The notes under the pieces are model-generated. The model was not told the DNA's origin and made no database searches. It saw nothing but the letters and a program-made list of their open reading frames with translations. A DNA stretch of 59,239 nt from Prevotellaceae bacterium (GTDB taxonomy: Bacteria; Bacteroidota; Bacteroidia; Bacteroidales; UBA932): positions 1 to 59,239 of the forward strand of contig JAIRZQ010000165.1 of NCBI GenBank assembly GCA_031267135.1, in the 5' to 3' direction. This document shows, piece by piece, positions 18,750 through 58,428 of this stretch. Numbering within the stretch: the stretch's first letter is position 1; each line of letters begins with the position of its first letter. A program made the translations under genes and the position numbers.

Positions 18750-18820
18750 CAGGGGTGGAGAGATTCGAACTCCCATCAACGGTTTTGGAGACCGCTATTC
18801 TGCCCTTGAACTACACCCCT
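18750..18820 (-). tRNA. tRNA-Trp (CCA)
   Basis: The reverse complement reads AGGGGTGTAGTTCAAGGGCAGAATAGCGGTCTCCAAAACCGTTGATGGGAGTTCGAATCTCTCCACCCCTG. It has an acceptor stem AGGGGTG/CACCCCT, an anticodon loop CT-CCA-AA and a GTTCGAATC T-loop. Confidence 0.9.
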
Positions 18821-18862
18821 AAAACTTCGGCTATAAAACTCACAGCCGAATGTTTTGATTGA

Positions 18863-20050
18863 TTATTCCAGTATTTTTGTGATTTGACCTGCGCCAACAG
18901 TGCGTCCGCCTTCGCGAATAGCAAAGCGTAACCCCTGGTTTATAGCAACAGGATAAATCAGTTTGACATTAATGGTTACGTTATCTCCCGGCATTACCAT
19001 TTCTACTCCTGTAGGAAGTTGCACTTCGCCTGTTACGTCGAGCGTGCGCAAATAGAATTGTGGACGATACTTATTGTGGAACGGTGTGTGGCGTCCGCCT
19101 TCTTCTTTTTTCAACACGTAAATTTCCGCTTCAAACAGCGTATGAGGAGTAATTGAACCCGGTTTTGCAATAACCTGTCCGCGTTTTACTTCTTTCTTGT
19201 CGATACCGCGAAGCAACAAGCCTACGTTATCGCCTGCTTCGCCCGAATCAAGCAGCTTACGGAACATTTCAACGCCCGTACATGTTGTTTTTCTCGGTTT
19301 TTCGCCAAGACCGATGATTTCCATTTCATCGCCTATTTTAATAATACCTGTTTCGATACGACCTGTTGCAACTGTTCCGCGTCCTGTAATTGAGAATACG
19401 TCTTCAACAGGCATAAGGAATGGCTTTTCATTGTCGCGAACAGGAATAGGAATGTATGTATCAACTGCATCCATAAGTTCAATAACTTTTTCTTCCCATT
19501 GCGGTTCACCGTTTAATGCGCCGAGAGCCGAGCCGCGAATAACCGGAGCATTGTCGCCATCAAAGTTATTTCTGTTCAGCAAATCGCGAACTTCCATTTC
19601 TACAAGATCTAACATTTCAGGGTCATCTACCATGTCGCATTTGTTCAAAAATACAACTATTTTGGGAACGTTTACCTGACGTGCCAAAAGTACGTGTTCG
19701 TTTGTCTGAGGCATCGGACCATCTGTTGCTGCAACGACCAAAATAGCACCATCCATTTGAGCTGCGCCTGTAACCATGTTTTTTACATAGTCGGCGTGCC
19801 CCGGACAGTCTACGTGAGCATAGTGACGCGCTGCGGTTTGATATTCAACGTGAGCCGTATTGATTGTAATACCACGTTCTTTTTCTTCCGGGGCATTGTC
19901 AATTTGGTCGAATGTCATAATTGTCGAAAGACCTTTTTTTGCCAATACCATTGTAATAGCTGCGGTAAGTGTTGTTTTACCGTGGTCAACGTGACCGATC
20001 GTACCAACGTTAACGTGCGGTTTTGATCTGTCGAATTTTTCTTTTGCCAT
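18863..20050 (-). CDS. tuf: Elongation factor Tu
   Basis: 395 aa, beginning [33 protein letters not shown], with DCPGHADY and NKCD motifs. Confidence 0.98.
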
Positions 20051-20163
20051 AATTTTTTATTTTTTTTTAACGTTAAAAATATATTAATACTATTTTATTT
20101 TTACAGTTTGTGTTTAGTATTTTCATTTCCATATTACCAAACCCTAACTATTTTTTGAGCCAG

Positions 20164-20235
20164 AGCCGGCGGCGAGAATTGAACTCGCGACCCCTTCCTT
20201 ACCAAGGAAGTGCTCTACCCCTGAGCTACGCTGGC
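20164..20235 (-). tRNA. tRNA-Thr (GGT)
   Basis: The reverse complement reads GCCAGCGTAGCTCAGGGGTAGAGCACTTCCTTGGTAAGGAAGGGGTCGCGAGTTCAATTCTCGCCGCCGGCT. The anticodon loop is TT-GGT-AA. There is one A-C mismatch in the acceptor stem. Confidence 0.85.
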
Positions 20236-20341
20236 ATGTCACGTTCTTAAATTATATTTATCTTAACAAAAACAGCGACTTTGAAAATACAACAATAAAC
20301 TCCGACAATCATAATTTCAGATTCGGAACTTATTGATTTTG

Positions 20342-20414
20342 AGCGGAAGACGAGGTTCGAACTCGCGACCCTTAGCTTGGAAGGCTAATGCTCTACCAAC
20401 TGAGCTACTTCCGC
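20342..20414 (-). tRNA. tRNA-Gly (TCC)
   Basis: The reverse complement reads GCGGAAGTAGCTCAGTTGGTAGAGCATTAGCCTTCCAAGCTAAGGGTCGCGAGTTCGAACCTCGTCTTCCGCT. The anticodon loop is CT-TCC-AA. Confidence 0.9.
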
Positions 20415-20422
20415 AAAATGCG

Positions 20423-20505
20423 TGGGAGAAGATGGATTCGAACCACCGTAGGCGTACGCCAGCAGATTTACAGTCTGCCCCATTTGGCCACTCTGGTATT
20501 CTCCC
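20423..20505 (-). tRNA. tRNA-Tyr (GTA), long variable arm
   Basis: The reverse complement reads GGGAGAATACCAGAGTGGCCAAATGGGGCAGACTGTAAATCTGCTGGCGTACGCCTACGGTGGTTCGAATCCATCTTCTCCCA. The anticodon loop is CT-GTA-AA. Confidence 0.9.
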
Positions 20506-20568
20506 TTCGAAATTGGCAAACGAATTAGTTGAATCTTTTGATTCTTAATTCTCCATTTCCAATTTTTG

Positions 20569-20642
20569 AGCCTCTTGTCGGATTCGAACCAACGACCCCG
20601 AGATTACAAATCACGTGCTCTGGCCAGCTGAGCTAAAGAGGC
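20569..20642 (-). tRNA. tRNA-Thr (TGT)
   Basis: The reverse complement reads GCCTCTTTAGCTCAGCTGGCCAGAGCACGTGATTTGTAATCTCGGGGTCGTTGGTTCGAATCCGACAAGAGGCT. The anticodon loop is TT-TGT-AA. Confidence 0.9.
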
Positions 20643-35679: not shown

Positions 35680-36062
35680 AATACAGTAATTTCGTTTTGT
35701 AAAAAATATCTGCAAAGATAGTGCAATTTTGTAAACGCGTAAAGTTTATTTTCATGCTTCAAGCAGTCGTTACTTAATAACTACTTTGTTAAAAAATAGA
35801 AAAACGCCTTGATATATAAAATACTGTTAACATGGTATTTATTTATATTATGATGCAAATGATATTTATAAATGTAAGAATTTTATTCAAAAAACCGATA
35901 AAAATAAACCAAAAATCCATTCATTTATAAAGAATGCATGTATTTATATAATAAATCCGGTTTCAATTTTAAACTTAAGCAGTTAAAATGAAATATCTTA
36001 TTAAAAATTTTGGTAATTATAAAATAAGATTATTAAATTTGCGGTATGTAAAATAAATAAAA

Positions 36063-36341
36063 ATGAACAAAAATGAAGTTCATATAGGTAATATCATACG
36101 GCAAAAGGTAAGCCAAAGTTCGCTTACTGTTACTGAATTTGCAAATCAAATAAATAAAACGCGCGAAAATGTATATGACATTTTTAAGCGTTCAAGTATT
36201 GACTCTGCATTACTGCTGCAAATATCAAAGGTATTGCATTATAACTTCTTTAAACATTTTAAAGAAAAGGAAGAATCTTCTGAATTATCCGAAATATCAG
36301 AATTCTCTGACTATTATGACTATTATGATATAGTTAAATAA
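36063..36341 (+). CDS. Small XRE-like helix-turn-helix protein with an acidic, Tyr-rich tail
   Basis: 92 aa. IGNIIRQKVSQSSLTVTEFANQINKTRENVYDIFKRSSIDSALLLQISKVL fits the XRE HTH pattern. The tail reads EESSELSEISEFSDYYDYYDIVK. It is the first gene of cassette 1. Confidence 0.6.
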   Translation: MNKNEVHIGNIIRQKVSQSSLTVTEFANQINKTRENVYDIFKRSSIDSALLLQISKVLHYNFFKHFKEKEESSELSEISEFSDYYDYYDIVK

Positions 36342-36357
36342 CAAGCACTTATCTTAA

Positions 36358-36439
36358 AGTGTGAAATAAAATTATACACAGTGTGAAATTTTATTTACGC
36401 AAAAAGCATTTTCTTTTAAAAAACATGTTTGTACTTTTG
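36358..36439 (+). promoter_or_regulatory. Direct-repeat operator candidate plus -7 box upstream of precursor 1
   Basis: AGTGTGAAAT occurs twice (36358-36367 and 36380-36389), 22 bp apart. TACTTTTG at 36432-36439 matches TAnnTTTG. The whole segment is conserved in cassette 2. Confidence 0.35.
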
Positions 36440-36504
36440 TGAAAAATTAAAAAAGGCAAAAATGTTACGCCTGAAAGATAACATAAATTAGAAATTTTAT
36501 AATT

Positions 36505-36693
36505 ATGAAAAAGGTAAAATTAACACTGGATGAATTAAGAAAAAACTCCAAAGAAATTTCCAAAGCATTAGATAAAAGATCTTTAGGTAAGATTAAAGGA
36601 GGAACGAGTAACTCGGGAAATTTAACAGGTGACTCATCACAGTTGATGGCTCAAGATAATGCCTATTACAGGAATATTCCGCCCATATCGTGA
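36505..36693 (+). CDS. Candidate RiPP precursor peptide 1 (Gly-Gly leader)
   Basis: The 62-aa peptide is MKKVKLTLDELRKNSKEISKALDKRSLGKIKGG followed by TSNSGNLTGDSSQLMAQDNAYYRNIPPIS. It has a Lys-rich leader ending in IKGG and a Ser/Thr-rich core with no Cys. It lies directly upstream of the rSAM and YcaO genes. Confidence 0.65.
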   Translation: MKKVKLTLDELRKNSKEISKALDKRSLGKIKGGTSNSGNLTGDSSQLMAQDNAYYRNIPPIS

Positions 36694-36721
36694 TGTTTAT
36701 TAACGTATCTATGTTTAAAGT

Positions 36722-36781
36722 TACCTGAAATATTTTATCCAATAATGTAATTTAAGTATATTATATTTCAGGTACTTTTTT
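36722..36781 (+). terminator. Hairpin plus T-tract between precursor 1 and rSAM-1 (attenuator-like)
   Basis: Perfect 12-bp stem tacctgaaatat/atatttcaggta (36722-36733 and 36763-36774), followed by c+tttttt (36776-36781). Confidence 0.5.
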
Positions 36782-36793
36782 CTGTAATCAAAT

Positions 36794-37975
36794 ATGTTTA
36801 TAATGCTTATAAAATGCGTAATACTAAAGGTAACAAGTATATGCAATCTTTCATGCAAATATTGTTATGTTTATAATAAAACAGATAAATCATACCTGAA
36901 TGAACCTGATATTATAGATTTTGTTACAGTAAAACAATTATTACAAAAGATAGAACAATACTGCAAAAAAAATAAATTAAACTCATTTCTCATTATATTC
37001 CACGGAGGAGAACCGCTTATAGCAGGAAAATCATTTTACGAAGAATTTATTAAATTGGCAGAGAAAATAGTTATATCTGCAAAATTATATTATTCTATTC
37101 AAACAAATGGAACTCTATTAACAGAAACGTTCTGTAAATTATTTAAAAAGCACAATATACATGTATGTATAAGCATTGATGGTAACGAGACAGCATCAAA
37201 TAATAGAATTTTTAAAACCACTGGACATGCAGCATATAATAACATCATAGCTGGTTACAACATTGCAACAAAGTATGTAACACCATCCGTTTTATCTGTT
37301 ATTAATACCAGCACAGATATTGATGAGTATTATACTTTTTTTAAAGATATATCTGTATCATATATGGATTGCCTTCCTCCTGATTCTACTTATGAAAAGT
37401 TTGATATGAATGCTAATCAACTTGGTTTGTGGCTAATAAAATTATTTGATGTATGGTATTTTGACAAAAGCAAACATAAACCAAGAATACGAATGTTTGA
37501 AGATACCATCAATTTGTTTTTTGGAAATGAAAATTATGCAGGAGGAGAATTATTTGGCAGAAATTTTAACGGAGCTATTGATATAAGAACTAATGGCAAT
37601 ATTGATATTGTTGACACATTACGAATTTGCGAAAATAATTTCTTAGTAGGTAAATATAATATTATGAATAATGAATTAGATGATATAATTAAGGAAGACA
37701 TTTTTTATAAATTCTATAATGCCCATCAGGATGATGTGTTATGTGAAAAATGCAGAAATTGTATTGTAAAAGATGTTTGTGGAGGTGGATTGTTGACATA
37801 TAGATTTTCTGCTAAAAATAGTTTTAATAATCCTTCTGTATATTGTTTCGATATCTTTTTATTGCTTATGTATATACAAAATACGTTAATTGAATATACC
37901 TCACCTAAATTATTGCAACAAGTAAATTTAACAAAGATTTCCATGCAAGATTACATTAGAACTATTTTATATTAA
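36794..37975 (+). CDS. Radical SAM enzyme with C-terminal SPASM-type auxiliary cluster domain (peptide maturase candidate)
   Basis: 393 aa. The CxxxCxxC motif is at residues 17-24 (CNLSCKYC). There is a GGEP motif (FHGGEPLI). The C-terminus reads CEKCRNCIVKDVCGGG...NPSVYC. Confidence 0.8.
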   Translation: MFIMLIKCVILKVTSICNLSCKYCYVYNKTDKSYLNEPDIIDFVTVKQLLQKIEQYCKKNKLNSFLIIFHGGEPLIAGKSFYEEFIKLAEKIVISAKLYYSIQTNGTLLTETFCKLFKKHNIHVCISIDGNETASNNRIFKTTGHAAYNNIIAGYNIATKYVTPSVLSVINTSTDIDEYYTFFKDISVSYMDCLPPDSTYEKFDMNANQLGLWLIKLFDVWYFDKSKHKPRIRMFEDTINLFFGNENYAGGELFGRNFNGAIDIRTNGNIDIVDTLRICENNFLVGKYNIMNNELDDIIKEDIFYKFYNAHQDDVLCEKCRNCIVKDVCGGGLLTYRFSAKNSFNNPSVYCFDIFLLLMYIQNTLIEYTSPKLLQQVNLTKISMQDYIRTILY

Positions 37976-37998
37976 CAAAATAAATACATTTTACAAAT

Positions 37999-39855
37999 AT
38001 GAAAAATTATAAGAAATATAAAAGCCATTTACCGGAACAGACAATACACAATATTCAGTCCATTCTTGCAGGCGTTGGCATATTATTAAAAGACCGGCAC
38101 AGGGAAACAAATAAAATGCATTCCTGTCGTATTATAATAGGTAATCATAATCTGGATAAATCAGATATAGGCACAAATGGCAAAGGAATATCATTTGAAT
38201 ATTCAATGGCAAGTGGTTATGCCGAATTTATGGAAAGAATTCAGAACAGGATATTATTCAGTGACCATCGACTTGTTTATGCCGCTGATAATTATATTAA
38301 GACTTTACCGCAAAATTCTTTGTATGTAAAAAAACTTAAACAAAACAATTCTTCTTTAGATTTTATGTACGACCCAAAAGAAGAAGTTTGGAGTATTGAT
38401 AAAATTATTGAACATTGGGGCAAAGAATTAATGAAGCTTTATGATATAAAGGATGAATCATATTTACATACTTTTTTCATTGATAAACTGCAAATAAACG
38501 AAAGTTTAATGATACCGTCCTATTCCGTATCGGATAATAAAGAAATATTAATTCCTGTTCGCCTGATTTTATATGCAACAGGCTCAAATGGTATGGCAGC
38601 AGGCAATACGGAAGAAGAAGCAATTTTACAGGGAATTTGCGAAATATTTGAACGTTACGCTGCATCGGAAATATATTACAGTAAACTTACACCTCCGACT
38701 ATTCCGTTAGAAATATTTAAAGGAACAAATGTGTATGAAAAAATTGACCACATAAAAAGAAAAACAGGCTATGAAATCGTTGTAAAAGACTGTTCTTTGG
38801 GAAAAGGAATACCTGTCATTGGAGTAATTTTTACAGATAAACAAAATTTGTTATATAATTTTAAACTCGGATCTGATTTCGTTCCTCATATCGCACTGGA
38901 AAGATGTATAACAGAAGCCTATCAAGGACACCATTTCAGAGGATTACCGTTGAAATTCTGCTTGGAAGATGATATACTGTCCGATGTTGCAATTGATATC
39001 AATTTCAATAAAATAATTAAAAACAGTACCGGATTTTGGCACAGATCTATTTTACATAGCGCATCGTCATACAGCTTTACGGGGTTTAATCCTGAATTTG
39101 GATTATCGAATAAGGGTGATATTCAATACAGTATTGAATTAATACAAAAAATGGGATATAATGTTTATATAAGAAATAATTCAATATTAGGATTTCCTGC
39201 GTATTATATTATCATTCCGGGCATGAGCCAAACAACTAAGTATAATCGCCGTTATGAATTGTTCCATACACATGATTTCGGTTCGCTTTCCAACATGAAA
39301 CAGCTTGGAAAAATAACTAAACAGGAAGCGCTGGCGCTTGCCAGTGCAATTGAGCATGTTAGAAATGTCGGCATTCATGAAAAAACATCAAATTATTTAT
39401 GTGATTATGTTTTATATAATGATGATGAAGATATACAAAATATTGATGACAATCTGCTGTTATTCAAACTTTTTTATTTTTCAAATCAGTATGATAAGGC
39501 AAAACAATATATGGATGAATTTTTATCAGACAAGAATGAGGCATATTCTTATTATTTTGCCGTGTCCGATTATGTTTATCTTAAACATATAAAAAACTAT
39601 TCATGCAGCGAAATTGAAAACATGCTAAGTTATACGCATGGAAGCGATATTGCAAAAGAAGTTGTATCAGACATGTCAGACCCTGATAAAATATTTCAGT
39701 ATCATGAACTTCCTGAATGTTTCGATTGTGAAGCATGTAAAGTATCGAATACCTGTCGTTTTTTCGATGTTGTCCATATACAAAAAACAGTAAATGACAT
39801 TGCAAAAAATAATTATATAAAGCAAATTGATACATGTAAATTATTTGATAAATAA
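37999..39855 (+). CDS. YcaO-domain protein with long helical C-terminal extension and terminal Cys cluster
   Basis: 618 aa. YcaO signatures are GTNGKGISFEYSMASGYAEFMERIQN and ATGSNGMAAGNTEEEAILQGICEIFERYA. A Tyr/Leu/Lys-rich extension of about 200 aa follows, ending in CFDCEACKVSNTC. Confidence 0.8.
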   Translation: MKNYKKYKSHLPEQTIHNIQSILAGVGILLKDRHRETNKMHSCRIIIGNHNLDKSDIGTNGKGISFEYSMASGYAEFMERIQNRILFSDHRLVYAADNYIKTLPQNSLYVKKLKQNNSSLDFMYDPKEEVWSIDKIIEHWGKELMKLYDIKDESYLHTFFIDKLQINESLMIPSYSVSDNKEILIPVRLILYATGSNGMAAGNTEEEAILQGICEIFERYAASEIYYSKLTPPTIPLEIFKGTNVYEKIDHIKRKTGYEIVVKDCSLGKGIPVIGVIFTDKQNLLYNFKLGSDFVPHIALERCITEAYQGHHFRGLPLKFCLEDDILSDVAIDINFNKIIKNSTGFWHRSILHSASSYSFTGFNPEFGLSNKGDIQYSIELIQKMGYNVYIRNNSILGFPAYYIIIPGMSQTTKYNRRYELFHTHDFGSLSNMKQLGKITKQEALALASAIEHVRNVGIHEKTSNYLCDYVLYNDDEDIQNIDDNLLLFKLFYFSNQYDKAKQYMDEFLSDKNEAYSYYFAVSDYVYLKHIKNYSCSEIENMLSYTHGSDIAKEVVSDMSDPDKIFQYHELPECFDCEACKVSNTCRFFDVVHIQKTVNDIAKNNYIKQIDTCKLFDK

Positions 39856-39892
39856 AAAACTAATCTGTTTCTGTAATTAAAATTAAAATATC

Positions 39893-42250
39893 ATGAAAAA
39901 AACATATCCGATTTTTATCTTTCTGTTGCTGATAAATTCGTTTGCCGGAAAGGCTCAAAACGCACTGGAACTTACGGGAAAAGTAGTTGATAATGAAAAT
40001 ATTCCCATAGAAAACGTGTCGGTTGTTATGCAAACCGCCGATTCGGTTTTTGTGAAAATAGCATTGACGGACACGCTGGGCGTTTTTCGCTTTGCGCAGT
40101 ATCCTTCCGATAAAGTGCAATTAATTTTTCATCACATTTCTTATAATCCCGAGTCGGCAGAAATAGAAACAGGCATTACCGATGCAGGAACATTCAGGCT
40201 GACTTCGAAATATCAAATCATAGACGAATCAAAAGTTACAGCCGACCGTCCGCAGTTAATGGTTGATGGGTTGACAATATCATACAATGCCGGCTCGCTG
40301 ACAAAAAACAAGCCCGTATCGACAGCATTTGATGTTGTTAAAGAAACGCCCGGAGTAACAGGTTCCGAAAACAGTATTGAACTGCTTGGAGCGAATCGGC
40401 TAAGTGTCATCATAAACGGCAAAACAACAACAATGCCTGTGTCGCAAATATATGCCATGCTGAAAAATATTCCTGCATCGCGTGTCAAAAGTGTTGACAT
40501 AATGTATAATGCGCCTGCAAGGTATAATTTTCGCGGCTCGCTGATAAATGTTGTCCTTGCAACGGATGGCGATAAAAAAATTATTGGAGAAATAAGCGCG
40601 GGGTACCGTCAATCTCATTATGCATCTGAAAATATTAACGGTAATATTTTGTTTACGGGCAAAAATTTAACATTGGATTTTTTAGTAAATGCATCAACAG
40701 GGAAAAATTGGAGTGAACGCAATACTTTTTCACGCCATACGCTTGGAAATGAAATTTTTGAAATCAATCAGTATTCACATGCATCGTCCGAATTCGATAA
40801 ATTGAATTTCCGCTTCGGAGCCGATTATTTATTTGAAAATGAAAACCAGCTGTCTTTTTCGTATTATGCTAGCCTGAACAAATCGAAGTCAAATACTTTT
40901 GCCGATAATCATTTTGAGGAAACAGCAGTGTACGACATAAACAGCGTAAATAAAAGCAATGAAAAAAACAGGCTGCACAACTTGCACTTACAATACGATA
41001 CAAAAGGCAATTTCACTGCAGGCGTTGATTTTACAGGCTATAACGCTCCAATCGACAATCATTTTAACAGCATCATGAACAATGTCGCTAATGATTTTCT
41101 TAATAACTCTAAACAAAATATTGCGCAATGGAAGATTTTTGCAGGTAAAAAGCAGAATATTTCACAAAAATGGACGCTGGAATTTGGCGCAAGCAGCGGA
41201 TTCAACAGTTCAAGAACTCATGTCGAATATTTGTATCCGCAAAACGGCAGTTATATAGAAGACATTACAAAGCGCTCGGATAATAGTCAAAAAGAATATA
41301 CAGGCAGAATCTTTATCGAATCAGCTCATAAAATAAGCAGCCGAATATCGGCAACCGTTGGCATCGAAACAGAGTATTTCCGTTCCGATTACAGTCGCAA
41401 TGCAACGAAAACAATACTTTGGAACGATTGGGTTTTATATCCGAAAGTGATGTTCAATTATATGATTTCGCCAAAACACATTTTGCAGTTCAACATTTCC
41501 ACAAATAAAAATTATCCATCATACTGGGCGGTAAATCCACAAACAACTTATATTGATTCGTACATGGAAATTGTCGGAAATCCTGCGCTTAAGCCATATA
41601 ACGAATATACAGGGCAATTGATTTACATATTCAAACAAAAATATGTTTTTATTCTTGCGGCTTCATATATGCCCGATTATTTTGCACAAATTCCACATCA
41701 GGATGAAAATTTATTGAAAACGGTTTATCGTTACGAAAATTACGATTTTTCGCTGTTTACAAACATAAGCATAGTCGTTCCCGTACAAATAGGCGACCGG
41801 TTTAATACGCGCATATCCGTTCACGGGCTTAGAATGCAGGACAAAAAAGATGATTTTTATAATTCGCCGTTCAATAGAAACCACTATGTAGGGGCAATAG
41901 CAATGAATAATACTTTCACTGTTTCGAAAGAAAAACCGAATTTATCGTTGCAAATAAACGGACGCTGGCAATCGCGCGCAATTCAAGGCGTATATGATCT
42001 TAACAGCAGCTTCGACCTGTCATCGGCGTTGAAATGGACAATGAAAAATCAGTCATATATTACAGTTCAGTATGGAAACATTTTGCGTCGACAAATGCCT
42101 GATTTAATGATTGTTGATTTTGGCGGGCAATACAGCCGAAGAAAAAACATCGATACAGCTTATATATCGTTTCAAATGGCTTGGAAAATAGGAAACTACA
42201 AAACAAAATCATATTCACAGCCAAACCGATCGAGATTTGAGCGAAATTAA
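39893..42250 (+). CDS. TonB-dependent-receptor-like outer-membrane beta-barrel protein (carboxypeptidase-regulatory-like N-domain plus plug-like region plus barrel)
   Basis: 785 aa with signal MKKTYPIFIFLLLINSFAGKAQN. LTGKVVDNENIPIENVSVVM is the CarbopepD_reg-like region. VKETPGVTG...IINGK...IPASRVKSVDIMYNAPARY is plug-like. The rest is Tyr/Asn/Ser-rich beta-barrel sequence. Confidence 0.7.
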   Translation: MKKTYPIFIFLLLINSFAGKAQNALELTGKVVDNENIPIENVSVVMQTADSVFVKIALTDTLGVFRFAQYPSDKVQLIFHHISYNPESAEIETGITDAGTFRLTSKYQIIDESKVTADRPQLMVDGLTISYNAGSLTKNKPVSTAFDVVKETPGVTGSENSIELLGANRLSVIINGKTTTMPVSQIYAMLKNIPASRVKSVDIMYNAPARYNFRGSLINVVLATDGDKKIIGEISAGYRQSHYASENINGNILFTGKNLTLDFLVNASTGKNWSERNTFSRHTLGNEIFEINQYSHASSEFDKLNFRFGADYLFENENQLSFSYYASLNKSKSNTFADNHFEETAVYDINSVNKSNEKNRLHNLHLQYDTKGNFTAGVDFTGYNAPIDNHFNSIMNNVANDFLNNSKQNIAQWKIFAGKKQNISQKWTLEFGASSGFNSSRTHVEYLYPQNGSYIEDITKRSDNSQKEYTGRIFIESAHKISSRISATVGIETEYFRSDYSRNATKTILWNDWVLYPKVMFNYMISPKHILQFNISTNKNYPSYWAVNPQTTYIDSYMEIVGNPALKPYNEYTGQLIYIFKQKYVFILAASYMPDYFAQIPHQDENLLKTVYRYENYDFSLFTNISIVVPVQIGDRFNTRISVHGLRMQDKKDDFYNSPFNRNHYVGAIAMNNTFTVSKEKPNLSLQINGRWQSRAIQGVYDLNSSFDLSSALKWTMKNQSYITVQYGNILRRQMPDLMIVDFGGQYSRRKNIDTAYISFQMAWKIGNYKTKSYSQPNRSRFERN

Positions 42251-42300
42251 ATCTGAATAAAATTTTAGTTATTAAATTTGGAGCATGAAAATCAATTAAA

Positions 42301-42569
42301 ATGAAAAAATGAAGTTCATATAAGCAAACATTATACGGCAAAAGGTATGCCAAAGTTCGCTTACTGTTACTGAATTTGCAAATCAAATAAATAAAACGTG
42401 CGAAAATGTATATGACATTTTTAAGCGTTCAAGTATTGACTCTGCATTACTGTTGCAAATATCAAAGGTATTGCATTATAACTTCTTTAAACATTTTAAA
42501 GAAAAAGAAGAAACATCCGAATTCTCTGAATTTTCTGATTATTATGACTATTATGATATAGCTAAATAA
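42301..42569 (+). pseudogene. Disrupted paralog of the XRE-like HTH gene (cassette 2)
   Basis: It is nearly identical in nucleotide sequence to 36063-36341. It has a 2-nt deletion after the ATG (atgaaaaaatgaagtt versus atgaacaaaaatgaagtt) and a 1-nt insertion near 42325-42332. The HTH-encoding frame therefore opens after a TAA at 42321 with no start codon. Confidence 0.6.
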
Positions 42570-42585
42570 CAAGCACTTATCTTAA

Positions 42586-42667
42586 AGTGTGAAATAAAAT
42601 TATACACAGTGTGAAATTTTATTTACGCAAAAAGCATTTTCTTTAAAAAAACATGTTTATACTTTTG
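42586..42667 (+). promoter_or_regulatory. Second copy of the direct-repeat operator candidate plus -7 box (upstream of precursor 2)
   Basis: AGTGTGAAAT at 42586-42595 and 42608-42617. TACTTTTG at 42660-42667. Confidence 0.35.
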
Positions 42668-42730
42668 TGAAAAATAAAAAAGGAGAATTGTTACGCCCGA
42701 AAGATAACATAAATTAAAAATTTTATAATT

Positions 42731-42919
42731 ATGAAAAAGGTATCTAAAAAGGTACAAAGCACCAAGTTAAATGAAAGCAAGTACTTTTCTTTAAATGGCA
42801 ATATGCTAAAAATTAAAGGAGGTCATAATGGCGACGACCTAGTCAGCAACACTGACCGTACTTGTAATGGTGGTTGTGGTGCAACTTCAGCATTTGTTAA
42901 TGGTGGTATAGTAAATTAA
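42731..42919 (+). CDS. Candidate RiPP precursor peptide 2 (Gly-Gly leader)
   Basis: The 62-aa peptide is MKKVSKKVQSTKLNESKYFSLNGNMLKIKGG followed by HNGDDLVSNTDRTCNGGCGATSAFVNGGIVN. It has the same ATGAAAAAGGTA start and 5' leader as precursor 1, but a Gly-rich core containing two Cys. Confidence 0.65.
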   Translation: MKKVSKKVQSTKLNESKYFSLNGNMLKIKGGHNGDDLVSNTDRTCNGGCGATSAFVNGGIVN

Positions 42920-42942
42920 CTAAATGATGTAACCTCATTATT

Positions 42943-42995
42943 GTTTCCTCAATAAATTAAATTTATCTTTAATTAAGTTGATTTTTTGAGGAAAC
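42943..42995 (+). terminator. Hairpin after precursor 2 (attenuator-like, analogous to 36722-36781)
   Basis: Perfect 10-bp stem gtttcctcaa/ttgaggaaac (42943-42952 and 42986-42995), followed by tttcttt. Confidence 0.4.
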
Positions 42996-43071
42996 TTTCT
43001 TTAATGATTTTACATTAAGTAATAACTTTGCTTTATAATATTTTTAAACAAAATTAATTTATTGAATAAAA

Positions 43072-44377
43072 ATGAACTCGGCATATAAACAGTTTAATAT
43101 TGATAATTCAGCATACGTATTTTATATTGAAGATTTTGAAATTTTCAAAATACTTCAAGGTAAAAATATTGAAAATGTATTGCAGGAAATAAAAAATGAA
43201 AAAGAAAAGTATAATCCAAACATAGAGAAAACAGAAAAGAAAAGTATAAAAGATGACTTTATTTTTAACAGTAAAATCATCAATACTATTGGACTTGATA
43301 TAGCGCATGGTTGTACTTTGGATTGCACATATTGTTATGTTTCTGCATCTAAAAAGCCATGACAATTATTAAATACAGAAAAGTTTTTAGATATATTAAA
43401 GTTTCTAAAGAATGTAAAAGACAATCATATTACTTTCTATTTTACAGGATATGGAGAACCTGTTTTAAATTTTAATTTATTAAAACAAGTACCTTATCTA
43501 TGCAAAAAAAATGGGTTTAATAAATGTGATTTTGATCTAACGACAAATGGAACAATATTAACGAAAGAAATGATTGATTTTTTCAAATTGAATAAGTTTA
43601 CAATATATATAAGTTTGGATGGCAATGATAAAATTAACGATGAATCTCGCGTATACCACAACGGTAAGGGAAGTTTTAATGATGTATTTAATAATATGAA
43701 TTTGTTAAAAAAATAATATTAAATTTTCATGTAAAACAGTGGTGTTGCCGAATAATAAGAACCTTGCAGAAGCATTTTTATTTTTTGAAGAAAACAAAAT
43801 TCATTTTATTTTTTCTATTGCTACAAATTCATTTGATAATCATTTTTCACCAAATATCGAAGATCTTAAAACTTTTGAAGAACAATTGGATATAGTTATT
43901 GACAATTACAGAAAATTGATTGAAGGCAATAACAAAATATACGCAGCTAAAATAATAAATGATTTAAAAAGAATTCATTATGGTGCGGTTAATAAAAACG
44001 GATGTGTAGCCTCAAAAGAAGGTTATTTTATAGATATTGACGGAAACATATTTTCTTGCTCTTATCATTCTAGTTCTAAAGATTTATCTATTGGTAATAT
44101 CTATACAGGAATTGATTATGAAAAAATAATCAAAAACAGCTATTATGCTAAACCTGTAGATAATTATCCAGCATGTAAAGTTTGCTGGATGAAATATTTA
44201 TGTTCCGGATCTTATTTTGCCATAAAATGGTTAGAGAATAAAAATACGGATGATCCATCTGAATATCTGTGTAAAACTTACAATATTTATTGGCGTGCAA
44301 TAATTAAATTGTATATCCAGCTTTACCCTGTTATAATTAGTGGTAATAATATTAATTTTTGTGACAGGAAAAACTAA
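43072..44377 (+). pseudogene. Radical SAM/SPASM enzyme of cassette 2, interrupted by an in-frame TGA and a homopolymer frameshift
   Basis: The CxxxCxxC motif (CTLDCTYC) is at residues 81-88. There is an in-frame TGA at 43360-43362. The frame then continues as QLLNTEKF...ITFYFTGYGEPVLN...YISLDGN... to a TAA at 43714. A 7-A run at 43707-43713 separates it from the frame encoding KNNIKFSCKTVVLPNN... and the SPASM-like C-terminus (CKVCWMKYLCSGS). Confidence 0.7.
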
Positions 44378-46775
44378 TCATATTATATTCAAGCTGTTTA
44401 AGTTACTGCTTGTTACAATATTTGTATCAGGCGTAAATGAGTTGCACTCTCAAACGTTCATTATCAAAGGAAATATAAAAAATTCAATTGGAGAACCTGT
44501 TGAATTCGCTAATGTTGAACTGTTATTTGAATCTGTTTATCATCAATACGCATTAAGCGATTCTACAGGAAATTATTACTTAAAGGCAACAAAAACGGGT
44601 GATTGTGAATTATTAATAAATATTTTAGGATATTCTACTGTTCGTAAAAAAGTTACTTTGAAAAATGACACAACCATCAATTTTGTTTTACAGCCTAATC
44701 CGCTTATTATTAATGAAGCAACAGTAATTGGACAAAAAGGCTTAATTCAGGCTATGTCAGGCAGATATGTGATAAATATTGGCGGTAACATCGAAACCAA
44801 AGGTAAAGGAATCACTGATATTTTGAAACAGCTACCAACTGTAAATATATCCGAAGAACGTTTAAGCATCTTCGGAAAATCATCCGTTATTGTGTATATT
44901 AACGACCGGATTGTACGATTAGAAGGACAATCTTTATTAAACTATCTTAATTCCTTGCCACCTGATATTATCAACAGTGTAGAAATAATATCTTCGCCTC
45001 CTGCTCAATATGATGCAGAAGGTAATACGGGAATTATTAAAATAGTAACGAAAAAAAATATTCTTCCGGGATGGAAAGAGTATTTTAGAGCACTTTATGC
45101 TCAAAGCGCTTACTCATCTTACATGGTTTCTACATTTGTAAATTATACCGGAGGGAAAATGTTTTTTGAGGGAAGTATAATCAATTTTAATTCTTCTATC
45201 TTAAGTCGAGTTAATTATTATGGTTATTTTCCCAATGAAATAACAACTACATTTAATCCAAGAAAGTGGAACTCTATTGGTTATGAGGCACAAACAAGCC
45301 TGGGATATAATTTCAATAAAAACTCAAATATTATTGTTAATTTGCAAATACCATTATATGGTAAAGTAACTATGACGGATATTGAAAATACAACCAGTTT
45401 TATTAACTCTGCTAATAATCAAACCGATTCAAGCATAAATTCTAACGGTACAATGATAACGAATAATTATACATTTAATTCAGAAGTGTTTTTTAAACAT
45501 TTGTTTTCAAACCGGGAATCATACTTTACGGCAAGTATGGCTTATCTCAATAATTACACGAAAAATAGAAGAGGCTTTTCTTCTTTAATGCAAATTAACA
45601 ATATAAATTCGACAACTGATAATTTTTATACAGAAGGAGGGTTGAATTATAATATTTTAACTCCCAAGTTAGATTTTAATTTTCCATTATTCAGTTGTAC
45701 AGTTAATACGGGTCTTAAACTGTCATTTATTGAAACTTCCTCTGATAATACATTTTTTAACATCATTAATTACAATCACATATTGGATCCTGCTCTGTCA
45801 AATAAATACAAATATACAGAGAATGTACAATCAGTGTATTACAGCATGGAAAAAACTGTTTCAAAATGGTCGTTTAAAGCGGGAATACGTGCCGAAACAA
45901 CAAAAACTGTCGGCAATTCACTGATTACAGATGAACAGTACAAAGATAATTATGCAGATTTTTTTTCATCAATTTATATATCTCATAAATTGAATAATAA
46001 AAGCAATATTTCAATTAGTTATGCTGAGCGAATTGAAAGACCTCCGTACCAATACTTAAACCCATTTAGATGGTACATCAGCAAATATAATTATGGTATG
46101 GGAAATCCTTTTCTAAAACCTTCTTATATAAAAAATCTCGAATTAGCTTATGTACTTAATAATACGTTCAGTATTAAAACATATTATACTCGTCAAAATA
46201 ACAAAATTGGACAATATGTTGTGCTTGATTCACTCAATATTTTGGAATCAATACAGCAAACGGACAATTTTTTTAATGTGAATATTTATGGAATCAATGT
46301 CTATAAATTATTGAAACTGTTTGACTGGCAGGAAACTGTTTTACAGGCTGATTTTTCTTATTCTGAATATAAATCAAATGAAAAAGAGTTTGCTAATATG
46401 TCCGGCATAAGTAGTACAGTCATTATGAATAATACAATTTTTATCAATAAAAAGTTTCAACTGATTTTTAATTTGGAAGAAAGGCTTCCCGGTTTATATA
46501 ATTACAGATCAATGAATAATTTTTTCAAAATAGATAGTGGACTTAATTACGTACACAGTAAAAAAGGAATTGAAGTGAGGCTTTTGATCAGCGATATTTT
46601 TAAAACAGCAAATCCTGAATATTCTTATATAAGTAGCGGTATTAAACAAATTTACCGAAATTATAATGATACCCGAATGGTTAGATTAGTATTGTCGTGG
46701 AGACTTGGCAACTGGTATAACAGAACACCACAAATATCTTCCCCTTCTAACTTAGATGAAAAACAAAGATTATAA
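44361..46775 (+). CDS. Second TonB-dependent-receptor-like outer-membrane beta-barrel protein
   Basis: Paralog of 39893-42250. IKGNIKNSIGEPVEFANVEL is the CarbopepD_reg-like region, and ILKQLPTVNISE...YINDR...LPPDIINSVEIISSPPAQY is plug-like. There is no ATG start. GTG at 44361 (or 44340) precedes the signal-like KLFKLLLVTIFVSG. Confidence 0.65.
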   Translation: MTGKTNHIIFKLFKLLLVTIFVSGVNELHSQTFIIKGNIKNSIGEPVEFANVELLFESVYHQYALSDSTGNYYLKATKTGDCELLINILGYSTVRKKVTLKNDTTINFVLQPNPLIINEATVIGQKGLIQAMSGRYVINIGGNIETKGKGITDILKQLPTVNISEERLSIFGKSSVIVYINDRIVRLEGQSLLNYLNSLPPDIINSVEIISSPPAQYDAEGNTGIIKIVTKKNILPGWKEYFRALYAQSAYSSYMVSTFVNYTGGKMFFEGSIINFNSSILSRVNYYGYFPNEITTTFNPRKWNSIGYEAQTSLGYNFNKNSNIIVNLQIPLYGKVTMTDIENTTSFINSANNQTDSSINSNGTMITNNYTFNSEVFFKHLFSNRESYFTASMAYLNNYTKNRRGFSSLMQINNINSTTDNFYTEGGLNYNILTPKLDFNFPLFSCTVNTGLKLSFIETSSDNTFFNIINYNHILDPALSNKYKYTENVQSVYYSMEKTVSKWSFKAGIRAETTKTVGNSLITDEQYKDNYADFFSSIYISHKLNNKSNISISYAERIERPPYQYLNPFRWYISKYNYGMGNPFLKPSYIKNLELAYVLNNTFSIKTYYTRQNNKIGQYVVLDSLNILESIQQTDNFFNVNIYGINVYKLLKLFDWQETVLQADFSYSEYKSNEKEFANMSGISSTVIMNNTIFINKKFQLIFNLEERLPGLYNYRSMNNFFKIDSGLNYVHSKKGIEVRLLISDIFKTANPEYSYISSGIKQIYRNYNDTRMVRLVLSWRLGNWYNRTPQISSPSNLDEKQRL

Positions 46776-48645
46776 AAATAAATTTAAATATAATGTTATG
46801 CATAAAATGTTAAAACCGTATAAAGAAGAAAAGCCATTAATTACTATTAACAGAATTCGTTCTATATTGAATGATGTTGGGATATTTGTTTCCGAAAAGT
46901 TTATACAAGATGGTGATTATTTTACCTGTAGAATTGTAATAGCTAATGATAACTTAATGGAATTTAATATAGGCACTAATGGCAAGGGAACGAGCATAGA
47001 ATATGCTTATGCCAGTGCCTATGCTGAGTTTATGGAAAGACTTCAAAATAATGTATTAATAAAAGCATCTTTCTTTTTTTCAAAATATTATAATAGAGAT
47101 TGTGTTTTTAAGAAACAATTAAAATTAGAAAACAAGGAATTGGATTTCTTATTTTGCCCTGATGAAAAAATGATAGAAATGACTAAAATAATTGATGAAA
47201 ATTACGAAATATTAAGAAAGTCATTCTCAATCAACGATAAAGATGAATTAACGGATTTTATTATTAATACATTTAAATATGCTAAAGCAATTTGTATTCC
47301 TTTTTATAATCAAAAAAATAATACAACAGATTATTTGCCAATAGATCTTCTTTTTTACGGTACAGGTTCAAATGGAATGTGTGCAGGAAATACTCCCGAA
47401 GAAGCTTTAATTCAAGGTGTATCTGAAATTTTGGAAAGATATGCCGCTATGGAAATATATATCAATGAAATTACTCCACCAACAATACCTCATGATTATT
47501 TTAAAGAATATCCAATATATAATTCACTAAAAAAACTTGAGGAAAAAGGATTAGAATTGATTATTAAAGATTTTTCATTAAGTAAAGGGCTACCTGTTAT
47601 AGGTGTTATTGTAATTGATAAAAATTCGAGGAAATATAATGTTAAAATCGGCTCGGATCCATGGCCTATAATTGCATTAGAAAGATGTTTAACGGAATTG
47701 CATCAGAGTTTTTTTGGAATTAGATTAATAGACAAATGTGATTATGGTGATTTTATAGAAAAAGAAAAATATAATGGATTAAATAGTGTAGAGGCTGAAC
47801 ATATTAATTTAACAAAAATTATTAACAATGCAACAGGACAATGGCCGGATTCTATATTTAGTGATGATTTTACTTACGAATTTACGGGTCTAAACTTTAA
47901 CTTAGGTAAAAGTAATAAATCTGATTTAAAATACTTATTACAATTAATAGATGAATTAGGGTCACAAATTTACATTAGAGATGTTTCATATTTAGGATTT
48001 AATTCGTATTACATTGTAGCTCCCGGCTTAAGTCAAGATAAAAGGAATAAATCTGCTTATGCCCTTTTTAATAAACTGCATGTTTTAATTAGGAATATTA
48101 ATAATACTTCAACATTAACAAAAGATGAATTAACCTCTCTCGTGTCGTTATTAGAAGAAAACTATATTGCAATTAAAGAAAACTATATAGAGTTTGAAAA
48201 AATATTTTTTTATAATACAGATAAAGAAGCTACCGATTTAACCATTGATTTATTTTTAAGTATGGCAAGCTATAAATTAGGGAAAATTGACAAAGCGTAT
48301 TCATATTTAAAAAATTATTTAAAAAATAAAGATGTGCAAGATTATTTATATTTTTATGCATGTAAAGATTATTTAGCGTTATTGCAAAATGAAAAAAGCA
48401 CATATGAAGTCCAATCATATATGACTAAAATATACGATATTGATTTGGCAAAAGAAGTTATTGAAGACATGCAAGATGCTAATAATATTTTTAAATCATA
48501 TAATTTACAGTCGTATTTTGAATGCAATAATTGTGATATCAAAGAATTTAAGTATTTTAAAGTCGCATCCATATTGAAAAACATTGAAAATAAACATAAA
48601 GCCCAAACTATTGACCAAATGAACTTATCAAAAATATTTTATTAA
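46756..48645 (+). CDS. Second YcaO-domain protein with long C-terminal extension
   Basis: YcaO signatures are GTNGKGTSIEYAYASAYAEFMERLQN and GTGSNGMCAGNTPEEALIQGVSEILERYA. The terminal motif is reduced to CNNC. The start more likely lies at ATG 46798 or 46807, after the stop of the preceding gene. Confidence 0.8.
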   Translation: MKNKDYKNKFKYNVMHKMLKPYKEEKPLITINRIRSILNDVGIFVSEKFIQDGDYFTCRIVIANDNLMEFNIGTNGKGTSIEYAYASAYAEFMERLQNNVLIKASFFFSKYYNRDCVFKKQLKLENKELDFLFCPDEKMIEMTKIIDENYEILRKSFSINDKDELTDFIINTFKYAKAICIPFYNQKNNTTDYLPIDLLFYGTGSNGMCAGNTPEEALIQGVSEILERYAAMEIYINEITPPTIPHDYFKEYPIYNSLKKLEEKGLELIIKDFSLSKGLPVIGVIVIDKNSRKYNVKIGSDPWPIIALERCLTELHQSFFGIRLIDKCDYGDFIEKEKYNGLNSVEAEHINLTKIINNATGQWPDSIFSDDFTYEFTGLNFNLGKSNKSDLKYLLQLIDELGSQIYIRDVSYLGFNSYYIVAPGLSQDKRNKSAYALFNKLHVLIRNINNTSTLTKDELTSLVSLLEENYIAIKENYIEFEKIFFYNTDKEATDLTIDLFLSMASYKLGKIDKAYSYLKNYLKNKDVQDYLYFYACKDYLALLQNEKSTYEVQSYMTKIYDIDLAKEVIEDMQDANNIFKSYNLQSYFECNNCDIKEFKYFKVASILKNIENKHKAQTIDQMNLSKIFY

Positions 48646-48660
48646 AACTAATGATTCATT

Positions 48661-48932
48661 AATTAGGGATATTCAGAAAAGGAGTAACATATTGATAGTA
48701 ACCTTATAACAAACTATCATTTCCTGAAAATTACTACGATTTTTGCCCCAAATATGGTGAAATCGGGGTAATTGTAATATTAATTTGTTTACCACATCAA
48801 ATCATTTGTCAAAGTATGATATAGAAACAGAGATTTTTCCAACAAATTATCGCAAAAAATCACGTCAAGAGCAATATTTTACTGCCAAAACGTAAAACTC
48901 TTTTTTTCTGCATTTCCTGAATTTCCCTAATT
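48661..48932. mobile_element. Noncoding segment of about 272 bp bounded by imperfect 16-17-bp inverted repeats (MITE-like or recombination scar)
   Basis: The left repeat is AATTAGGGATATTCAG (48661-48676). The right end at 48913-48932 has reverse complement AATTAGGGAAATTCAGGAAA. A third partial copy, CATTTCCTGAA, is at 48718-48728. No ORF is present. Confidence 0.35.
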
Positions 48933-48976
48933 ATATAAAGCAAATTGATACATGTAAATTATTTGATAAATAAAAA
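48929..48976 (+). repeat. 48-bp relic identical to the 3' end of ycaO-1 (39811-39858)
   Basis: aattatataaagcaaattgatacatgtaaattatttgataaataaaaa occurs at both positions. At 48929 it has no upstream reading frame. Confidence 0.8.
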
Positions 48977-49125
48977 TCAGCTCTTTTTCATATTACGCGA
49001 ACCTGAACAAAAAAGTGCCGCAATAATCATATCCGAATGCAGGCAAAGTATATAAAAAAACTCTTGGAAAATTCTGTTTTCAAATCGTTATAGCCTAAAA
49101 ATAAGGAAAATATGCGCTAATAAAA

Positions 49126-58317: not shown

Positions 58318-58428
58318 AATACTGCTTTTTATTAATTTATACTGAAAATTTTTTATTCTTTACTTAATTTTTTACTTCCCTACTCTGTTCCGGCTTTTCG
58401 GGTTTCGCCGTTTGTTTAATTATTTGTT

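Follow-up and report, generated by a model that had tools for sequence, protein, structure and literature searches.

The itf cluster of Bacteroides thetaiotaomicron, the work of Clark and Seyedsayamdost (2022) as summarized in PMC11002830 and PMC10352776, encodes a precursor with a double-glycine (GG) leader, ItfA, together with the YcaO protein ItfB, the radical S-adenosylmethionine (rSAM) enzyme ItfD, the C39-peptidase ATP-binding cassette exporter (PCAT) ItfE and the TonB-dependent transporter ItfF. According to these summaries, ItfB turns the last backbone amide into an amidine with ammonia, and ItfD cross-links Trp(i) to Ile(i+2), adjacent to the amidine. The Bacteroidales architecture of GG-leader peptide, rSAM enzyme, YcaO, outer-membrane protein (OMP) and PCAT has already been described (PMC10352776). 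The defining feature of triceptides is an aromatic-to-Cbeta link on an aromatic-X2-X3 motif (PMC11499958). The native motif of ChlB is YDR (PMC11499958), and YhhB forms Tyr-C3 to Arg-Cbeta and His-C2 to Arg-Cbeta links (PMC11002830). The present analysis concerns a locus of a Prevotellaceae bacterium on contig JAIRZQ010000165.1 (assembly GCA_031267135.1); the window is the whole stretch of DNA analysed, positions 1 to 59,239. The element in question is a short open reading frame (ORF), precursor 1, directly upstream of genes for an rSAM enzyme (rSAM-1), a YcaO protein (YcaO-1) and an outer-membrane beta-barrel (OMP-1). It is a real gene, encoding the precursor of a small Bacteroidales family of peptides synthesized on the ribosome and then modified post-translationally (RiPPs). 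The probability that this peptide is the substrate of an rSAM-1/YcaO-1/OMP-1 maturation module, with the pathway proposed below, is put at roughly 0.7.

The gene and the parts of its product are as follows.

36505 to 36693, forward strand: precursor 1 gene, 62 amino acids plus stop, ATG start and TGA end; homologues were found via synteny and profile search.
36505 to 36603, forward strand: leader, residues 1–33 (MKKVKLTLDELRKNSKEISKALDKRSLGKIKGG), with a double-glycine type end, from a 14-member alignment.
36604 to 36651, forward strand: variable spacer, residues 34–49 (TSNSGNLTGDSSQLMA), with no conserved column across the family.
36652 to 36690, forward strand: conserved core block, residues 50–62 (QDNAYYRNIPPIS), with the Tyr54-x-Arg56 codons at 36664–36672.

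The full translation is MKKVKLTLDELRKNSKEISKALDKRSLGKIKGGTSNSGNLTGDSSQLMAQDNAYYRNIPPIS, ending at the stop codon and written as leader and remainder MKKVKLTLDELRKNSKEISKALDKRSLGKIKGG and TSNSGNLTGDSSQLMAQDNAYYRNIPPIS. After the GG it holds seven Ser or Thr residues and zero Cys. An earlier sequence-only reading had proposed this ORF as a RiPP precursor with a GG-type leader, split at G32-G33 from a cysteine-free core; each of these points is borne out. It had also looked to related loci for a small ORF at the equivalent position. Tracing rSAM-1 homologues back to their contigs shows more than 15 independent loci with such an ORF directly 5' of the rSAM gene (L001, L003, L005, L008, L009, L018, L088, L090, L091, L092, L094, L096, L097, L098, L111 and L173). 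Every related Bacteroidota locus with enough flanking sequence has an MKK... leader ending in GG just upstream of the rSAM gene. The peptide, including an invariant D-x-x-Y-x-R, is kept across loci whose rSAM genes are only 43–51% identical. A profile built from six peptides of what is here called subfamily A matches about 50 clusters in a 90%-identity protein database, with E-values down to 1e-22; these include peptides NCBI-named from Prevotella jejuni and Bacteroidales bacterium 43_36, and one of the roughly 50 clusters is present on 335 contigs. An exhaustive HMMER profile search of 1.84 billion representative proteins returned only 22 matches, so the precursor family is narrow.

On an alternative view the frame is open merely by chance in AT-rich intergenic DNA and is untranslated. 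This view could appeal to its shortness, to the lack of a recognizable Shine–Dalgarno sequence, to the absence of any match in a Pfam scan of the peptide, and to the labels of its relatives in the source database, which are either none or 'hypothetical protein'. The comparative data effectively refute it: peptide and position are both kept while the rSAM genes diverge. The surrounding intergenic stretch (35717–36793) is 1.08 kb long and 25% GC, and an ORF of this length is improbable there; two ATG-initiated ORFs of at least 62 codons are observed against a mean of 0.11 in mononucleotide shuffles, and 0.8% of shuffles reach two. Codon changes also lean synonymous. Of the 18 codons that differ from L001, the closest relative, 11 differ synonymously, and the part after the GG has five synonymous changes to one non-synonymous.

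Conservation within the peptide is concentrated at its two ends. Residues M1, K2, K3, L27, G32, D51, Y54 and R56 are invariant in the 14 family members, conservation is at least 90% at G33 and Y55, and P59 is invariant in a smaller six-member alignment only. The leader follows the pattern MKKV...L..I.GG and the C-terminal block the pattern [KQ][QN]-D-x-x-Y-x-R. Between the GG and the QD..Y.R block lies a spacer of about 4 to about 30 residues and variable composition; one family member has zero Ser, Thr or Cys in it. The most conserved element is the C-terminal core motif, which differs from the conserved leader and variable core that had been expected as a signature. A proposed cross-link at the YY pair survives in part: the pair lies within the conserved motif, but of the two only Y54 is conserved, along with R56 and D51. 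Position 55 may be Y, V, F or S (YVR, YFR and YSR variants occur), so the motif is Y-x-R rather than YY. Tyr55-Arg56-Asn57 was also considered as the motif and rejected, position 55 and position 57 both being variable. What both subfamilies keep is Tyr-x-Arg preceded by an acidic residue at −3.

In subfamily A the genes run rSAM, YcaO, OMP, and some loci add a PCAT. The core ends read ...MAQDNAYYRNIPPIS in the window, ...AAKQDNAYYRAIVPSMK in L090, ...AAKQDNAYVRNIVVPPTR in L091, ...AAKQDSAYYRAIIPPVKQK in L094, ...QQQDSCYYRACRTVETTPDFQ in L088 and ...EKNDSIYYRRV[VI]PT... in L008 and L173. The L173 precursor, P0261, is NCBI-named from P. jejuni; a product of such a strain would be expected to end ...NDSIYYRRVIPTHSTK. 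Its cognate rSAM is shorter (342 amino acids), and a 66-residue ORF follows the YcaO gene; the same locus (L173, 1–11475) carries a second, different rSAM (428 amino acids) and two OMP genes upstream of the PCAT. A YcaO is missing from subfamily B (L003, L009, L092, L096, L097, L098 and L111; the L097 and L098 contigs stop at or just past the rSAM gene, and downstream genes are not seen there). Its precursors end in motifs of the NY[AS]ESTY[VN]R type, such as NYAESTYVR, which keep [DE]-x-x-Y-x-R in the form E-S-T-Y-V-R. Such precursors bear two Tyr motifs. A 344-residue protein follows the subfamily B rSAM (L003, 9151–10185), with equivalents in L009, L018, L092, L096 and L111. It has weak similarity to alpha/beta-hydrolases (DLH/S9-like), often with PCAT and HlyD genes next, and may be a processing protease or esterase. 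Scanning metagenomes with the rSAM alignment yielded distant FxsB-like loci for the most part; enzymes at least 42% identical to rSAM-1 came only from L092, L093, L094 and L097, and L093 has no convincing precursor ORF. A scan of genomes gave mostly distant relatives too, from Actinomycetota, Cyanobacteria and Acidobacteriota; as the peptides upstream of them are unrelated, they were not used.

Three genes downstream of precursor 1 complete the module.

36794 to 37975, forward strand: rSAM-1, a radical SAM/SPASM protein of three-residue cyclophane synthase type, 393 amino acids, with Pfam Radical_SAM and Fer4_12 matches.
37999 to 39855, forward strand: YcaO-1, a stand-alone, Escherichia coli YcaO-like protein of 618 amino acids (Pfam YcaO E = 4.9e-53).
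39893 to 42250, forward strand: OMP-1, an OMP_b-brl_3 outer-membrane beta-barrel with a CarboxypepD_reg N-terminal domain, TonB-dependent receptor-like, 785 amino acids.

The rSAM-1 protein carries the CX3CX2C motif at C17, C21 and C24 and further C-terminal cysteines at 279, 317, 320, 323, 329 and 351. Among NCBIfam models it scores best against cyclophane synthases: YhhB (272 bits against a cutoff of 445), FxsB (228 against 370), XyeB (168 against 450), GrrM of the GrrM/OscB type (112 against 310) and AmcB (100 against 425). Thioether-synthase models are far lower (PapB 87 bits, SCIFF 50 bits), as are epimerase models. The top sequence match in the PDB is the radical SAM domain of ChlB (9gm3/9gmc), at full length with E = 4.6e-45. 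For an AlphaFold2 model of rSAM-1 (mean pLDDT 93.3) each of the top four Foldseek matches is ChlB, with TM-scores of 0.86/0.89, a root-mean-square deviation of 2.1 Å and 27% identity; anSME follows at 0.77–0.82, and CteB and SuiB are well behind. Epimerase, sactisynthase and ranthisynthase identities were rejected on these model and fold rankings. The sequence-only reading had held that the partner enzyme cannot form thioethers on this core, and its place in the cyclophane clade agrees; epimerization, which had been offered as another option, is not supported, since rSAM-1 is not PoyD-like and a PoyD-type model is absent from the best 25 matches listed. Sactipeptides and ranthipeptides are a poor fit, with no Cys in the core and low-scoring thioether models. 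Two features of a triceptide system are present, namely a homologous CX3CX2C/SPASM enzyme and a conserved aromatic-X2-X3 precursor motif with Y54 and R56 invariant. As the invariant Y54-x-R56 fits the triceptide definition, the best reading is that rSAM-1 would install a triceptide-type cross-link from Tyr54-C3 to Arg56-Cbeta.

A real rSAM substrate at Y-x-R might still undergo other chemistry: linkage to Arg C-gamma or C-delta, as with WprB and RrrB, a C–O ether, as in daropeptides, or a reaction that does not cross-link. The distance of rSAM-1 from its reference enzymes speaks for this, as does the range of connectivities among related rSAM enzymes. WprB joins Trp-C5 to Arg-Cgamma (PMC11851443), ItfD is summarized as joining Trp-C7 to Ile-Cdelta (PMC11002830), and DarE is an ether-forming enzyme (PMC9055067). 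Against it, YhhB and ChlB, the closest characterized enzymes by sequence and fold, both link an aromatic ring to Cbeta on aromatic-X-Arg, and the invariant i/i+2 spacing of Tyr and Arg is the triceptide spacing. Such other chemistry is a minor possibility beside the Tyr-C3 to Arg-Cbeta link.

YcaO-1 has as its closest PDB relative the stand-alone E. coli YcaO (4q84, E = 6e-25), with LynD and TruD far behind at about 1e-8. Its ATP/Mg-binding motifs (SxxxExxER, EIFERY and ALER) are kept in all 20 aligned relatives. A YcaO is co-located with an rSAM-1-type enzyme in eight loci, including L001, L088, L090, L091, L094, L008 and L173. A C-terminal CX2CX2CX5C motif (CFDCEACKVSNTC; residues ~573–590, 39715–39765) is kept in the nearest relatives, is missing in YcaO-2 as well as in the L008, L094 and L173 proteins, and may be a metal or Fe-S site. 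YcaO-2, encoded with the cysteine-type module described below, is 38% identical to YcaO-1. Bacteroides sp. 51 (L172, 6610–15223) encodes a YcaO 42% identical to YcaO-1 with OMP, PCAT and HlyD but no rSAM. That locus also holds a 93-residue Lant_dehydr_C protein, similar to RiPP recognition elements (RREs), and a precursor reading ...NEIVGG and then KRGDTQTQTQTQISDEEVPL, the core of which contains TQTQTQTQ.

One possible function for YcaO-1 is that of a cyclodehydratase forming oxazolines from the Ser/Thr residues of TSNSGNLTGDSS or from the C-terminal Ser. The seven Ser/Thr residues after the GG would offer targets, the L172 relative has both a TQTQTQTQ core and a small protein resembling RREs next to it, and YcaO-1 is weakly similar to SagD-type models and to LynD and TruD. 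This function is nevertheless unlikely. The protein reaches 69 bits on the SagD-type model TIGR03604, where the cutoff is 219, the known structure nearest to it is that of the stand-alone E. coli enzyme, and neither an E1-like/RRE partner nor a dehydrogenase was detected among the neighbouring ORFs scanned with Pfam and NCBIfam. Subfamily A cores share no conserved column of Ser, Thr or Cys; L091 has just one Thr in its core (YEAAKQDNAYVRNIVVPPTR) and L094 none after the motif. The TSNSGNLTGDSS segment, in which Ser and Thr had been suggested as YcaO targets, proves to be spacer, varying in length and composition. The missed SagD cutoff and the lack of a conserved Cys/Ser/Thr core position likewise set the locus apart from azoline-type peptides (thiazole/oxazole-modified microcins, TOMM, or linear azol(in)e-containing peptides, LAP). 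As no such core position is conserved, a fixed azoline site is unlikely, and the likelier product is a backbone amidine of the ItfB kind. Action of YcaO-1 on a backbone amide is plausible; by analogy with itf, formation of an amidine near the cyclophane or the C-terminus is weakly suggested.

The pathway proposed for precursor 1 has four stages. (i) The peptide would be translated as leader (1–33, with its GG end), variable spacer (34–49) and conserved C-terminal block; a hairpin and U-run after the gene, described below, would yield more precursor than enzyme transcript. (ii) rSAM-1 would take a hydrogen from the C-beta of Arg56 and couple that carbon to ring C3 of Tyr54. Homology and motif conservation predict a strained Tyr-x-Arg cyclophane, 2 Da lighter than the starting peptide. 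(iii) With ATP, YcaO-1 may activate an amide of the backbone, probably one close to the cyclophane or C-terminus; this amide would most likely become an amidine, as with ItfB in the Bacteroides itf pathway, although this step is only weakly indicated. (iv) A C39-peptidase exporter would presumably cut the leader after the GG, and the beta-barrel OMP would handle passage through the outer membrane, in export or re-uptake. OMP-1 homologues follow the YcaO gene in L001, L088, L090, L091 and L094, and PCAT genes occur in L088, L091, L094, L008 and L173. Since the exporter is found in related loci and not in the window, it would act in trans.

Several observations weigh against this pathway. The cross-link and its connectivity are extrapolated from homologues only 27–30% identical, and rSAM-1 lies under the curated cutoff of every NCBIfam cyclophane-synthase model, a member of no named subfamily. 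The L172 YcaO, with its TQTQTQTQ core and no rSAM, indicates that this YcaO family is not tied to one chemistry. A PCAT was not found anywhere in the 59-kb window. Finally, the precursor and rSAM of L001 are disrupted and the rSAM of the second module in the window (rSAM-2) is broken, so the lineage may be losing these clusters. The L001 rSAM is 83% identical to rSAM-1 over the aligned segment and is split. In the L001 precursor one base is deleted after codon 54, which shifts the frame; with the base restored the sequence reads AYYRNIPHIS. The L001 copy is either decaying or mis-assembled; the frame of precursor 1 agrees with the rest of the family, and the frame in the window is thus authentic.

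From these defects it could be argued that the whole module is a decaying, non-productive remnant, with an intact ORF and no mature peptide for lack of processing and export. Besides the missing PCAT, the damage in L001 and the in-frame stop and frameshift of rSAM-2, that account can point to a low-GC island not syntenic with L001. Set against it are full-length precursor, rSAM-1, YcaO-1 and OMP-1 genes with catalytic motifs intact, and core changes that are mostly synonymous; a PCAT could moreover lie elsewhere in the genome, and the L001 defects could be assembly errors of a metagenome-assembled genome. A remnant is judged quite unlikely, and a functional module remains the preferred reading.

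Putative expression signals lie on both sides of the precursor gene.

36063 to 36341, forward strand: upstream ORF of 92 amino acids (HTH_3 E = 0.083; HigA-type E = 0.017).
36432 to 36439, forward strand: TACTTTTG, a match to TAnnTTTG, 66 nt before the precursor 1 ATG.
36717 to 36786, forward strand: hairpin then U-run between precursor 1 and rSAM-1 (RNA fold −17.1 kcal/mol, z = −2.65).

Placing a hairpin behind the precursor gene is the usual way of obtaining precursor transcript in excess. The stem arms and T-run are kept in L001 and the loop differs; a simple terminator scan did not call this hairpin, which was seen on folding only. It is a candidate intrinsic terminator or attenuator. The TAnnTTTG sequence is the consensus of the Bacteroides-type −7 promoter element. 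The same octamer occurs 64 nt before the ATG of the second precursor (42660–42667); the window shows no clear enrichment of TAnnTTTG (97 observed, 80 expected), and the promoter evidence is weak. A sigma-70 promoter scan found no enrichment over shuffles, with a model not applicable to Bacteroidota promoters, and no Rfam RNA family was found in or near the precursor 1 locus. The 92-residue ORF is possibly a small helix-turn-helix regulator, its matches being weak. About 570 bp upstream of both precursors are nearly identical (35950–36520 and 42250–42740), through ATGAAAAAGGT, and include this ORF. The second copy has a 9-bp deletion and small upstream indels, with no intact equivalent of the 92-residue ORF found there. 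The block resembles a duplicated cassette of regulator and promoter, each copy of which would drive a different RiPP module.

The second module has the order precursor 2, PapB/SCIFF-like rSAM-2 (broken), OMP-2, YcaO-2. Precursor 2 (42731–42919) reads MKKVSKKVQSTKLNESKYFSLNGNMLKIKGG as leader and HNGDDLVSNTDRTCNGGCGATSAFVNGGIVN as core, with two Cys; it has only its start and the KIKGG end in common with precursor 1. The hairpin after it is stronger than that after precursor 1 (z = −5.2). The rSAM-2 gene (43072–44377) is disrupted by an in-frame TGA at 43360–43362 and a frameshift near an A-run at about 43707–43716, leaving pieces of 96, 48 and 212 amino acids. The low-GC island (36000–49000) has 23–33% GC over most of its length and up to 39% across OMP-1; the housekeeping genes on either side have 38–48%. 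It is bordered by pheT/aspS and an RND (resistance–nodulation–division) efflux operon. The L001 module has other neighbours and adjoins an integrase gene, which suggests horizontal transfer. Elsewhere in the window, on the reverse strand, a DUF805b cis-regulatory RNA match (47.9 bits, 58377–58411) and five tRNA genes (18750–20642) adjoin the tuf and rpoBC ribosomal-protein region.

Literature searches turned up no report that pairs a ChlB/YhhB-like cyclophane synthase with a YcaO, and none of this D-x-x-Y-x-R precursor family. It is tentatively suggested that the locus belongs to an undescribed Bacteroidales hybrid RiPP class, in which a Tyr-x-Arg cyclophane would be joined by a YcaO backbone change next to or on the strained ring. 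This possibility would take in the YcaO Cys4 module, which may bind a metal or Fe-S cluster, the dedicated beta-barrel OMP and the members NCBI-named from P. jejuni; the YcaO reaction could be new for the superfamily rather than a copy of that of ItfB. If so, a three-residue cyclophane synthase would work together with a YcaO. As P. jejuni is a named species, the product could be directly testable by mass spectrometry. A single-motif substrate (D-x-x-Y-x-R) would also give a simple handle on peptide recognition by ChlB-like enzymes.

Among known peptide families, TIGR04149 (GG_sam_targ_CFB, the rSAM-modified peptides with Bacteroidota GG leaders) resembles precursor 1 in the leader, over residues 1–35. 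Three of the 14 family members match this model at E up to 1, the best with E = 6.7e-5; precursor 1 itself scores 13.4 bits against a cutoff of 25 (E = 0.054). The cognate maturase of that family, TIGR04148, differs too, with rSAM-1 only a distant match (64 bits against a cutoff of 300). The BGC8-type cluster of Porphyromonas gulae (YcaO, ranthipeptide-like rSAM, OMP and PCAT; PMC10352776) shares the architecture and resembles the second module, whereas precursor 1 has no Cys and rSAM-1 belongs to the cyclophane clade and not to the thioether clade. Likeness to the triceptide systems of ChlB and YhhB lies in the enzyme and its presumed target. Like them rSAM-1 has no N-terminal RRE, ChlB being best in sequence and fold and YhhB the best curated model, and precursor 1 has an invariant aromatic-X-Arg near its C-terminus. 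The differences are that rSAM-1 falls below every curated cutoff and is about 27% identical to ChlB; that there is one motif per peptide here, while ChlB is described, in a reference title cited in PMC12636437, as a multiple cyclophane synthase; that the GG leader is of the Bacteroidota kind and related loci hold PCAT and beta-barrel OMP genes; and that a YcaO is co-encoded, a pairing not found in the literature search.

By architecture the nearest characterized system is itf, likened here by gene set and published description. Four of its five gene types are present in the window, the PCAT not being found in the 59 kb, and the precursor 1 core ends ...AYYRNIPPIS, with no Trp or Phe; C-termini are not conserved within the family. 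The gene set and the host order are otherwise the same. Both systems have a GG precursor, a SPASM rSAM, a stand-alone YcaO of ~600 amino acids and a beta-barrel OMP, and relatives of the window module have the PCAT as well. In itf, and by prediction here, the rSAM target is an i/i+2 aromatic-to-aliphatic pair close to the C-terminus. The locus would thus be a second example, after itf, of a Bacteroidales GG leader combined with an rSAM enzyme, a YcaO and a beta-barrel OMP.

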